Source of the DNA: Eledone cirrhosa
Lineage: Eukaryota
NCBI GenBank assembly: GCA_964016885.1
Contig: OZ024740.1
Coordinates: 254,882,001 to 254,946,000, forward strand
Reading direction: 5' to 3'
Length of the DNA stretch: 64,000 bases
The notes under the pieces were generated by a model. It was given only the letters and a program-made list of their open reading frames with translations. It ran no database searches and was not told the origin of the DNA. Positions 9,431 to 39,690 of this stretch are shown piece by piece. A program made the translations under genes and the position numbers. How positions within the stretch are numbered: the first letter of the stretch is position 1; each line of letters opens with the position of its first letter.

Positions 9431-9476
9431 ATATATATATGTATATATATACGATATTAACAAATGGAAACTATAT

Positions 9477-10058
9477 TCCGACCTCACACACTTACACCTC
9501 TCCAAGACAATGTCACTGGACCGAGACCTTTGGCGGTACTCAATAACAGAAGACCCGCCTCACAAAAGTAAAACCTACTAGTCAGTAGGCATCTCTAACA
9601 AAATACACCCCCTGTCCCACCCCATCCCCACACCGCCCCATTCAATGCAAAGTTATGTTGGTGCCACAACATCCAGGCCGAAACAAACGAGATCGTGTAG
9701 GTGTCACGACAAAAAAACACACAGTCCACGCTGTAATGTGACCGTGTAGGCAACACGGTAAAAACCTCCCAGTCCCACACTGTAAATGTGGTTGGTGTTA
9801 GGAAGGGCATCCAGCTGAAGAAAACACGCCAGATAGTCCACGCTGTAATGTGGCCGTGTAGGCAACACGGTAAAAACCTCCCAGTCCCACACTGTAAATG
9901 TGGTTGGTGTTAGGAAGGGCATCCAGCTGTAGAAAACCCGCCAGACAGTCCTATACGAGCAAGACAACCACTCTTGCCTCAAGTGGGAAAACCCCCGTCC
10001 AAACCCATGCAAGCGTGGAACAGGGACGTTAAACGATGATGATGATGATGATGATGAT
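9477..10058 (+). mobile_element. RTE family B 3' fragment
   Basis: SDLTHLHLSKTMSLDRDLWRYS plus 3' UTR and (GAT)n. Confidence 0.82.
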
Positions 10059-10063
10059 ATTTA

Positions 10064-10122
10064 TTTCATTATACATATTTCAAGGACACCAAGTTAAATT
10101 ATGGTGTTTTCATCAGATAAAA
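10064..10122 (-). ncRNA. Minimal type-I hammerhead ribozyme (left arm)
   Basis: Minus strand TTTTAT-CTGATGA-AAACACCA...TGGTGTCCTT-GAA-ATATGTAT-A-ATGAAA. Confidence 0.68.
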
Positions 10123-10271
10123 TATAATATAGAGCAGTTTTATAAATAAATATTGACATACTCTTAAAGAATGCAACCATTACTGAGGGCAGCTCCCGGA
10201 GCTTCCCTCAGTAATGGTTGCATTCTTTAAGAGTATGTCAATATTTATTTATAAAACTGCTCTATATTATA

Positions 10272-10332
10272 TTTTATCTGATGAAAGCACACCATAATTT
10301 AACTTAGTGTCCTTGAAATATGTATAATGAAA
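10272..10332 (+). ncRNA. Minimal type-I hammerhead ribozyme (right arm of palindrome)
   Basis: TTTTAT-CTGATGA-[AAGCACAC...GTGTCCTT]-GAA-ATATGTAT (palindromic with G.U)-A^-ATGAAA; predicted cleavage after 10326. Confidence 0.7.
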
Positions 10333-10462
10333 TAAATATGGTTTTATAAATATAGTTTCCATTTGTTAATATCGTATTTTTACTCCAAATATTTGTTGAG
10401 TGCTTTATATCAGTTATAAAATTATTTGCTTGTTACATCCCAACAATTTGTATATATATATA

Positions 10463-10897
10463 GATGACTTGGGATGAGGTGATAAAAGCCGACCTTACCC
10501 AACTACACCTCTCAAAGTCAATGACACATGACCGTGACTTCTGGCGTCACGCAGTAATACAGGGTACCCGACCTCCCATGGGTACATGCTGAAGCATATA
10601 AACAATATGCCCCCCCCCCCCCCCACCGCAAGGTGGTCGTGGAGGTGCCACGGCAAAAAAGCACCCAGCCCACACTGTAAAGTGGACGTGTAGGCGCCAC
10701 GAAAAAGCACCCAGCACTCACTGTAAATGAGGTTGGTGTTAGGAAGGGCATCCAGCTGTAGAAATCAAGCCAGATCAGTTCCTGTATGAGCAAGGCATGG
10801 TCAGCCGACCAGACACTGCCCACAACAGGACAACCCGTCTAACCCATGCTAGCGTGGAAGAACGGACGTAAAACGGTGATGATGATGATGATGATGA
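10463..10897 (+). mobile_element. RTE family C 3' fragment
   Basis: Nearly identical to 13892-14317. Confidence 0.85.
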
Positions 10898-11037
10898 TAT
10901 ATATATACGTATATATATATATATGTATATATATGTATATATATATATATGTATATATATATGTATATATATATATGTATATATATATATATATATATAT
11001 ATATGTATATATATATATATGTATATATATGTATATA

Positions 11038-37173: not shown

Positions 37174-37204
37174 TGTATGTATGTATATATATATATATAT
37201 ATAT

Positions 37205-37727
37205 TTGTCAGGTTTTGTTTTTTGTCCTGCAGGGTGTCCAAAATCACCCTCCCCACCAAGTAAACCTGGTGGGTTTGCTGGTTTAATCGCCGACGACCCG
37301 ACCATGCGACAGGTTGTACTGGGTTACATGTTACCAGTAACACTCAAGCAAAGGGCGGAAGAACTTATAAGAGTCAACGCCGATCCAAAAATGTGTAAAT
37401 ATGTATATACACATGTACCGCACGGTTAAACCACTGGGAGTGAAGGACCCCTAGCCTTTGTCAGGGCATTCTTCTAGGAGAAGGCAACTCAGGAAACGGG
37501 GATAACTCCGATATAAAACCTGCGGCTGAGTAGTTACCGATCATGTTCATCTTTTCTTATTTTCGGGTTATAGCTACTGTCGCTCAGATAGTGGGATTGG
37601 CTCAGTGCACAGTCTTTCCTCACTTTAAAAAATATCTTCACGCACAGGCATTGCACGATAGAATTATTAAAAATTATTAATAATAGTATATCTTGCAATG
37701 GCCATACTCAATAACGAGCAGCCATCA
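37205..37727 (+). mobile_element. Bipartite RTE/BovB-like element with inverted 5' segment
   Basis: 37205-37343 is the reverse complement of the 5' end seen at 8862-8998; the remainder is in + orientation. Confidence 0.65.
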
Positions 37728-37740
37728 TATATATATATAT

Positions 37741-38083
37741 CATTTTCATTTCATTTTACGTCCGCTTTTTCCCTGCTTGCAAGGGTGGGATGGGAACTGA
37801 TTCTGGCTTGATTTCTACAGCTGGATGCCCTTCCTAACACCAACCTCATTTACAGTGAGTGCTGGGTGCTTTTTTTTTTTCCGTGGCACCTCCACGACCA
37901 CTTTGCAGTGGAATGATATGGACCCCTGTTCCTATCATCTCATTTCTACAGCTGAGTAAACTGGAGCAATGTGAAATAAAGTGTCTTGCTCAAGGAAACA
38001 ATACATCACCCGGTCTGAGAATTGAACTCACAATCTTCTGAACTCACCCGGTCTGAGAATTGAACCACTAAGCCATGTGCCTC
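37741..38083 (-). mobile_element. tRNA-derived SINE, same family as 3545-3930
   Basis: Reverse-complement match including the tRNA head and RTE tail. Confidence 0.78.
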
Positions 38084-38288
38084 CATATATCATCATCATC
38101 ATCATCATACGTCCACTTTTCCCTGCTATATGTATATATGTATGTGTGTATAAAAATATATATATGTGTGTGTGTGTGTATATATATATATATATATATA
38201 TATATATATGTATCATCATCATCATCATCATACGTCCGCTTTTCCCTGCTTGCAAGGGTTATATATATATATATGTATATATATATAG

Positions 38289-38824
38289 TTTAGGGAGCTG
38301 CTTCCTCTGTTGACGAAGAAGGGTTTCTCCCTGCGTACGAAAGGCCGGTTGTATGATGCCTGTGTGAGGAGCGCGATGCTGCATGGTAGTGAGACATGGG
38401 CAGCTACCGCAGAAGATATGCGACGGCTGGAGAGAAATGAGGCAAGCATGCTCCGTTGGATGTGCAGTGTAAATGTGCGTGAACGACCCAGCATAAATGT
38501 GTTGAGAGAGAAACTGTGTCTGAGAGGGATAGAATGTAGTGTACGGGAGAGGAGACTGAGGTGGTATGGACATGTGATGCGCATGGAGGATGACCGATGG
38601 GTGAAGAAGTGCCAGGAAATGCCAGTTGAAGGAAGACGTGGTAGAGGTAGACCACGAAAAACATGGGCGGAGGTGGTGAGAACAGACCTCAGATCATTGA
38701 AGCTCACGGTGGAGATGACGAGGGACCGTGACGAGTGGAGAGATGCTGTGCTGAATAAGACCCGTCCCACCCTTGCAAGCAGGGAAAAGCGGACGTAAAA
38801 TGATGATGATGATGATGATGATGA
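38289..38824 (+). mobile_element. RTE family A 3' fragment
   Basis: Open frame KGRLYDACVRSAMLHGSETW...RWYGHVMRM; (TGA)n tail. Confidence 0.88.
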
Positions 38825-39272
38825 TATATAACAAAGGAATTGTGGTAAGGAACCAGATGGACCATAACGCACCAAAGTACTCAATACTTAGAGTAGTAGA
38901 GTAGGTAATAGGAACAAGTATGACCCCAACGGCAGAGCTCAAGCCGTTTCGACTATTTCTGGACACATGCAATATTTTCAGAACAAATTTTCTCAGAGAA
39001 AATTTGTTCTGAAAGTATTGCATGTGTCCGAAGAACCTGCAGATCTAGAATCAGACAGATCCATACAATGATCGTGTCTCGAGCTATCTGCCGGCGAAGC
39101 AATTGTAACATACAATAAACTGAGTCCAGATGCATCACTGACTTTTCGTTTTATATTATATCACACTCTGCTCTGTAAGAACATAAGAGTGCTCAACTGG
39201 CATACCGCCTATGGAAGCATCATAGCTACATTAAACACACACACGCACACATATATATATATATATATATAT

Positions 39273-39690
39273 ATACAAAGTGTTAAAATGATCAAATTTT
39301 AACTTAGAACATTTATTTGCTGACAATTGTTTCTTCCAGAGGGAAGTCTGGAATCATCGGAGCATAGGGAATGTCGAAACAAGTGACTAAAATCCTAGTC
39401 ATTCAGAATATTTAGGGTACATGATGCCTTTGACACTAAAAACAATTATGTACCCTAAATGTTCTGAATGACTAGGATTTTAGTCACGTTTCGGCATTCC
39501 CTACTGGAAGAAACAATTGTCAGCAAATAAATGTTCTAAACTAAAATTTGATCATTTTAACACTTTGTATCTCGGCTCTGTAAAACACTTGAAAATTTCT
39601 ATTGAGCCTTTTGTCATGCCGGTAACCGGCTAGTACTTAGTACTACCCTCCATATTATAGTTGTATTAAACATATATAAATATAAATATT
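39273..39690. mobile_element. Fold-back element (Penelope-like pLTR pair), older
   Basis: Inverted arms 39273-39422 and 39448-39570; right arm has lost the ribozyme 5' half; ~120-bp extension on the right; (TA)n flanks. Confidence 0.68.
39318..39364 (-). ncRNA. Hammerhead ribozyme with variant core (CCGATGA)
   Basis: Minus strand TGCT-CCGATGA-TTCCAGA cttccc TCTGGAA-GAA-ACAATTGT-C^-AGCA; perfect stem II and palindromic stem III, U4-to-C change in the core. Confidence 0.62.

Follow-up and report, generated by a model that had tools for sequence, protein, structure and literature searches.

The window analysed here, a 64,000-nucleotide (nt) stretch of Eledone cirrhosa DNA (GenBank assembly GCA_964016885.1, contig OZ024740.1, positions 254,882,001 to 254,946,000 of the forward strand), contains three fold-back elements embedded in (TA)n microsatellites. 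Each consists of two head-to-head arms, one short and one long, with predicted hammerhead ribozymes that read outwards, and each represents a different repeat family (F1, F2 and F3; Table 1). These three repeats are ordinary, abundant debris of a known insertion class, which we trace below to Penelope-like elements (PLEs) encoding a reverse transcriptase (RT) and a GIY-YIG endonuclease within one open reading frame (ORF). The focus of the analysis is what fixes the two outer ends of such insertions.

Table 1. Features of the three fold-back elements and other elements in the window. Positions count from the first nucleotide of the window; hammerheads, cut sites and stems are predicted.
Feature	Position	Strand	Remarks
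Element 1 (family F1)	9450..10450		head-to-head PLE stub in (TA)n; left arm short, right arm long; turn near 10198
Element 1 short arm, outer 28 nt	9450..9477	-	severed from the rest of the arm by the SINE-like repeat
SINE-like repeat ending in (ATG)n	9478..10058	+	inside the short arm of element 1; ~9 nt lost there
Type I hammerhead, element 1 right arm	10270..10334	+	predicted cut after 10326
Stem 1 of element 1	10382..10401	+	ACTC-hairpin-TT-GAGT; starts 4 nt past the short-arm stop point
Tail of element 1	10378..10450	+	73 nt; ~14 nt missing compared with the F1 family long end
Element 2 (family F2)	25763..26191		young fold-back stub; left arm long, right arm short; turn at 26020
Type I hammerhead, element 2 right arm	26083..26153	+	predicted cut after 26145; mirror copy cut at 25895 (-)
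Stem 1 of element 2	25820..25844	-	ACTC-hairpin-TA-GAGT; opens the 86-nt tail
Element 3 (family F3)	39273..39693		older stub; left arm short, right arm long
Type I hammerhead, element 3 short arm	39318..39364	-	core position 4 is C; predicted cut at 39322
Stem 1 of element 3	39575..39607	+	GCTC-hairpin-TT-GAGC; opens the ~120-nt tail
Fourth inverted PLE stub (family C, presumably Neptune-type)	26490-26770		hammerhead core at 26637 (-); short end ~115 nt past the cut; adjoins element 2
Other element remnants, from the ORF list	11448-14022, 17391-19605, 26944-27513, 28155-30760, 33889-35919

Inverted arms were located by self-BLAST of the window with microsatellites masked (10057-10339 at 97% identity, 25852-26188 at 99.7% and 39278-39565 at 76%), and hammerheads were called by a structure-checked motif scan, all cut sites being predictions. 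Based on these analyses, the head-to-head arms and outward-reading hammerheads of the original prediction are present in all three elements, as is one long arm with an extension of 73 nt (element 1, truncated), 86 nt (element 2) or ~120 nt (element 3). The long end of element 1 lies at cut+124, compared with a mode of +138 in family F1, and the F1 family copies lack the inserted repeat of this element, which we take to be a short interspersed element (SINE). In the predicted folds, the hammerhead core and three stems are present and stem III is palindromic or near-palindromic; F1 and F2 are canonical, and F3 mostly carries C at position 4. The only whole core of element 3 accordingly reads C-C-G-A instead of C-U-G-A, its right arm being devoid of the 5' half of the core. 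This C at position 4 is found family-wide in F3 and in cluster CL9 (CCGATGA, CCGAAGA; e.g. window 39354-39360 on the minus strand, and locus L171). An Rfam scan of the window returned no hammerhead among the best 150 of 223 matches. By eye, an AATAAA within ~10 nt past the predicted cut, together with a U-rich tract before the short end, was seen at window 10327-10340 and in F3, CL10, CL18 and CL30, a layout that in several families resembles a polyadenylation signal arrangement.

The end of a short arm was defined as the last base common to the short and the long arm, using family copies for element 1 (L062) and element 3 (L042). By this measure, the short arms of elements 1, 2 and 3 stop 51, 46 and 49 nt past the predicted cut, at (TA)n, closely matching the 50, 46 and 49 nt claimed earlier. 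The window copy of element 1 is, by reading, consistent with the L062 value, giving 50-51 nt only after removal of the SINE-like repeat, and 28 of the 90 hammerhead matches in its cluster read 48-50 nt. In a background sample of 60 evenly spaced 10-kb genome stretches (600 kb), (TA)4 was found 34-59 nt past the cut in 9 of 47 hammerhead-like motifs, compared with 2.7% of random positions. The spacing thus exceeds chance, but the distribution is multimodal, the same 47 motifs forming further groups at ~10-21, 116-148 and >200 nt. The spacing of 34-59 nt is therefore a real mode and not a universal constant.

At first look, there were 1174 candidates for F1, 990 for F2 and 2397 for F3, of which 40 per family were scored; many loci in the end distributions were chosen by whole-element queries. 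The distance to the first (TA)4 showed two sharp peaks in each family, at 48-50 and 137-138 nt in F1, 38-45 and 132-136 nt in F2 and 46 and 178 nt in F3, which argues for fixed arm ends rather than random erosion. All 30 query-selected F2 loci had TA runs on both sides, and 14 of 61 F2 short arms end at an earlier TATA. Arm length ranges from ~100 nt to several kb (1-6 kb reached) with the same two ends. Since the turn-point finder gave false matches in microsatellites, only turns within ~90 nt of the core were kept.

The parents of the three families were found by walking upstream from the longer arms, which run into ORFs in L233 (F1), in L235, L236, L242 and L247 (F2) and in L238 (F3). The 5' ORF starts are represented by L289-L293 for F1 and L297-L301 for F3. 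For F2, L281 harbours an intact ORF of 800 amino acids (aa), and a search with the F2 N-terminus gave 150 scored places at ≥92% identity, many of them in 821-codon open frames. About 1.1 kb lie between the F2 stop codon and the hammerhead, and an arrangement of one ORF between two pseudo-long terminal repeats (pLTRs) was found in L247, L281, L282 and L285. Element 2 is a stub of the youngest coding F2 subfamily, because its diagnostic bases recur in the full-length ORF copies L283, L284, L286 and L287. L288 (G000:C1:254739500-254746500), an almost full-length F2 copy carrying a frameshift, lies ~140 kb upstream of the window.

The F2 protein carries the motifs RRLRWTA, SDKTN, CNCRIKNKC (CxCx5C), CNLC (CxxC) and CLH (CxH), and CCHH is absent from the printed protein. 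Fragments of F1 and F3 contain CxCx5C, both of their ORF starts contain RW, and the F1 start also SDKTN; over the aligned parts, the F1 and F3 proteins are 35-44% identical to F2. A further family, D (RIRWRA, SSDKT), is ~40% identical to F2, and its protein is Hydra-type in 5 of 8 loci. The Hydra-type F2 protein had no match in Pfam or PDB, and 15 homologues were found at 32-38%. Compared with a protein of the same genome that we take to be Neptune-type, it aligned weakly, both in the RT motifs (E=5e-6) and in the endonuclease core (E=0.018). The Neptune-type PLEs obtained from a Pfam GIY-YIG search are not the parents of these families, and tblastn with five Neptune-type proteins missed the Hydra-type ORFs, which surfaced only in a plain ORF listing. 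RW(K)-type, DKT, CxCX5C, CxxC and CxH motifs define the Hydra clade of PLEs (PMC8557442), and on these motifs, with published Hydra sequences compared by eye, the three elements are assigned as 3' stubs of RT and GIY-YIG Penelope-like families of this clade. The link of the elements to PLEs proposed originally is therefore borne out, each family having been traced to an RT and GIY-YIG ORF. The view of an undescribed system has to be given up, since the layout was already reported (PMC8557442, PMC3846280) and the parents bear Hydra-clade motifs. Two further identities were rejected. The elements do not form the tandem direct repeats of non-LTR retrozymes, since they are inverted and lead into PLE ORFs, and their arms are too variable and ORF-linked for a unit independent of a coding parent, as in miniature inverted-repeat transposable elements; the fixed-turn form of F2 may still be a unit of this kind.

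Long arms share a predicted bulged stem (stem 1, RCTC-hairpin-NN-GAGY) just past the point where short arms stop. Among the long arms, 46 of 47 in F2, at least 33 of 46 in F1 and 17 of 24 in F3 have it at a single offset, compared with a background frequency of 0.00065 per nt; all three window elements bear it. Over ten family or subfamily comparisons, the distance from cut to short end ranged from 22 to 56 nt, with five of the ten within 44-52 nt. The gap from short end to stem, determined by script, was 4, 4, 4, 4, 5, 5, 3, 7, 15 and 5 nt and thus fell within 3-7 nt in nine of ten; the gap of 15 nt (CL13) stems from a substitution between the compared copies and is 4 nt by eye. In family D, the short end lies at +22 and the stem at +27 from the cut, and CL8, CL10 and CL14 end at +54 to +56 with a near-constant gap to the stem. 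Furthermore, where F2 copies differ by a 2-nt indel between cut and stem, the two ends are displaced by the same 2 nt. Family D and the F2 indel are natural experiments that separate an anchor at the ribozyme from one at the stem. The conserved ruler measured from the ribozyme, as proposed originally, finds no support, since family D ends at +22 and the ends track the downstream stem.

The same stem was recognized by eye in the supplement of PMC8557442, 43 nt past the cut in the coral element Hydra-2_Amil and 38 nt past it in Hydra-2_Ajap from a sea cucumber; Hydra-1_Ajap ends 46 nt past the cut and has two such stems before its ATG. Distances of ~40-50 nt are thus widespread among Hydra-clade elements, whether through descent or through a weak constraint, but they are not required. 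The portions of the literature covered by our searches contain no description of the stems, the cut-to-end spacing or the pairing of short and long arms described below. Two other candidate signals were discarded. Base pairing between the surroundings of the short end and those of the hammerhead cut was at chance level, 9-26% of windows being better in most families and the pairing being best only in the F2 element of the window, and hairpins upstream of the ends gave weak and inconsistent folds. One pairing in CL17 (end 131, stem 140) proved to be a false match of different copies, and this family was dropped from the comparison.

Regarding the long end, tandem copies in F1, F2 and F3 run past it through a second stem into the ATG and the ORF. 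This stem 2 (GCTC-C..G-NN-GAGY) begins 7-9 nt past the long-end signature. Of the loci fetched, 7 of 8 in F1 and 4 of 5 in F3 contain it, as do the F2 copies that run on; for F2, 29 matches run on and 64 end in TA, counted without removal of duplicates. As the element continues past the long end through stem 2 into the ORF, the RNA 3' terminus does not have to coincide with the long end. The original prediction had the long end primed at the RNA 3' tail; this is thus not a necessary source, but it may apply to some copies. In family D, short tandem units of ~220 bp comprising hammerhead, stem and ORF start were seen, which are retrozyme-like (L306, L307, G000:C1 near 67.88 Mb).

Head-to-head pairs consist of one short and one long arm in 40 cases in F2, 24 in F1, 8 in F3 and 4 in D, and long-long pairs were not found. 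Among pairs unselected for a tail, 24 of 26 were short plus long by script (p=5e-6); in the other two, a point change and an internal deletion had caused long arms to be misclassified, and they agreed on inspection, giving 26 of 26. One D pair is a segmental duplicate. L286 has two short ends with identical flanks, which we read as a later duplication. The ORF can lie in either arm (the long arm in L233, the short arm in L238), and both arms are full length in L285. The rule of one short and one long arm fits the originally proposed priming on both target strands. Adjacent or back-to-back arms of different hammerhead families were observed in L184 at 3640-4060 (F2 and CL19) and in L119 at ~3900-4130 (D and an unrelated arm). 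If these represent single events, two complementary DNAs (cDNAs) can derive from different RNAs.

Taken together, the elements are 5'-truncated head-to-head insertions whose two outer ends likely correspond to two RT start sites, each likely set by the predicted bulged stem downstream and not by the ribozyme. In the proposed mechanism, the endonuclease would nick both strands of (TA)n, and each nicked 3' end would anneal over 1-4 nt to UA-rich sequence lying directly 5' of a stem, with one strand primed at stem 1 and the other at stem 2, probably within a two-subunit protein-RNA complex. Both cDNAs would pass the uncleaved hammerhead, stop and be joined head to head at their truncated ends; that the arms run through the cut site indicates an uncleaved template. 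The spacing of 46-51 nt would then be the inherited distance from hammerhead to stem 1, which the clade follows as a soft norm. Of 9 usable comparisons, 7 have junctions ending in TAT or ATA, which is partly so by construction. In its stronger form, towards which we lean with some reserve, the duplicated bulged stem of Hydra-clade PLEs, relatives of telomerase, would be a template-positioning signal, and a two-subunit complex would prime the two nicked (TA)n strands simultaneously, each at its own stem. If true, such twin-stem priming is enough to explain why the tail is one-sided, why the copies are inverted head to head and why short arms pair strictly with long ones. The analysis turns the apparent ribozyme ruler into a precise prediction, namely that two ~20-nt stems fix start sites 3-9 nt upstream.

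Several points weigh against priming at the two stems. In CL17, the motif precedes the arm end and not one of its 5 copies terminates directly ahead of the stem, and CL8, CL9, CL10, CL13 and CL14 are represented by one long arm each, without a link to an ORF. Most families, in other phyla too, cluster at 38-56 nt from cut to end, and there may be a weak constraint on the distance from hammerhead to stem. The searches for stem 2 in F1 and F3 required RCTC, so that independent evidence comes only from the other parts of the stem and from the ORF, and family D has a plain 4-bp hairpin 9 nt past its long end instead of a canonical second stem. The non-Hydra family C has two ends (~+116 and ~+175) without the stem motif, and the bulged stem is therefore clade-specific; the motif was likewise not found in clusters CL4, CL6, CL7, CL11 and CL12. 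Finally, initiation without target homology was described for another PLE (PMC11167929), as opposed to the short TA matches at the junctions here.

Among the alternatives, a protein binding the hammerhead fold, with copying starting at a fixed 46-50 nt past the cut, would accommodate the half of the ten comparisons that lie near this value, the many single-copy clusters at 42-59 nt and, by eye, the ends or stems that lie near +36 to +48 in published consensus sequences of Hydra elements from other phyla. We nevertheless consider such a ruler very unlikely. The divergent spacings of family D, CL8, CL10 and CL14 all come with a near-constant stem gap, and the F2 indel shifts the end along with the sequence. 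In addition, no hammerhead is situated 46-50 nt upstream of the second end, and hammerhead mutants left the insertion size unchanged (PMC11167929). Slightly less improbable, but still unlikely, is that stem 1 sets the short end, and that transcripts of genomic copies carry a read-through (UA)n tail at which priming yields the long end. Such a tail would pair with the target, and it would suit family D as well as the fact that terminal copies lack stem 2 and yet ORF-bearing long-end arms are common (L281, L285, L287). However, a second stem stands just past the long end in three families that are only distantly alike in protein, long ends are sharp, and tail priming by itself leaves the conservation of a stem there unexplained; tandem copies able to supply stem 2 downstream of the ORF also exist (L287).

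It is equally doubtful, and comparable in its low probability to the ribozyme ruler, that the fold-backs, above all those of F2, are non-autonomous hairpin units copied whole, their geometry having been set once per family and then cloned. With a whole-element query, 39 of 40 scored F2 matches span the whole query at 97-100% identity with a single turn point, and F1 arms are slightly more alike within a copy than between copies (0.968 vs 0.952, p=0.0009), the difference in F3 being not significant. Yet this choice of query itself selects such F2 matches, turn points vary in F1 and F3, and arms of 1-6 kb share the same two ends. Moreover, full-length ORF copies contain the variants of the F2 element in the window. 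Other F2 arms, too, begin at about this place: many of them, including 3 of 18 that lead to an ORF, stop close to a single CATATG site located ~125 nt upstream of the cut. This suggests an RNA 5' end or stop site common to F2 arms. An RNA 5' end at CATATG, if true, would account for the many identical 424-bp F2 fold-backs for which whole-unit copying is the rival explanation. Family D and the F2 indel subfamily serve as natural controls, and a young, apparently active family with many intact 800-aa ORFs makes the twin-stem reading directly testable.

In LINE-1 twin priming, both target strands prime cDNA, yielding an inversion, and the arms copy non-overlapping parts of one RNA from its poly(A) tail. 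In contrast, both arms of the elements described here span the same region from two fixed sites. Among PLEs, an inverted 5'-truncated copy with a one-sided tail and (TA)n targeting have been described, and one cephalopod family is already listed in the Hydra clade (PMC8557442). Our elements share with this clade the single-ORF motifs, the absence of CCHH, a canonical type I hammerhead, (TA)n targets and the inverted 5'-truncated copy; they differ in being longer, in tails of 86-130 nt vs 30-40 nt and in high copy numbers (PMC8557442). The passages of that paper considered here make no mention of stems, end spacing or the short-plus-long rule, and the paper names the start of PLE copying and the inverted copies with one-sided tail as an open task (PMC8557442). 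Type I hammerheads with a palindromic helix III were found in pLTRs, and opposite-strand pairs 100-700 bp apart were ascribed to truncated PLEs (PMC4209133). Rotifer Penelopes likewise show head-to-head inverted pLTRs with a tail on one of them and palindromes at the junction; self-priming on an antisense template was proposed for them, whereas our data favour two separately primed cDNAs (PMC3846280). Non-LTR retrozymes are tandem direct repeats, unlike the inverted stubs here (bioRxiv 10.64898/2026.07.22.740005).

The closest experimental parallel is Poseidon PAc, an anole PLE and the only PLE family that has been reconstituted (PMC11167929). In vitro, it uses two internal RT start sites, both strands are extended, hammerhead mutants are without effect, and a dimer is predicted (PMC11167929). 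As in our proposal, the two internal start sites define a tail, both strands are cut and extended, and hammerhead cleavage is dispensable. Poseidon PAc belongs to another clade, however, and starts inside the ORF in an AC-rich stem-loop without target homology (PMC11167929), whereas the two proposed sites here precede the ATG and lie directly 5' of a bulged stem, the junctions showing short TA matches.

Further elements lie in the window. The family C stub next to element 2, whose parent ORFs are found in L174, L180 and L183, is a counter-example to a universal ruler of 46-50 nt, because its short end lies ~115 nt past the cut and the bulged stem is absent. The other remnants in Table 1 comprise what we take to be an RTE-like RT, an R4/Dong-like RT with restriction-like endonuclease, a Tc1/mariner transposase and a Helitron Rep/helicase. 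A decayed fold-back resembling family D, with its turn at the hammerhead core, is located at window 4034-4167, and a broken Hydra-type endonuclease remnant of another family lies just downstream of element 3 (39906-40543, plus strand; tblastn E=6e-13). Upstream of element 3 and separate from it, a near-perfect hairpin of 69 bp is found at window 38961-39029.

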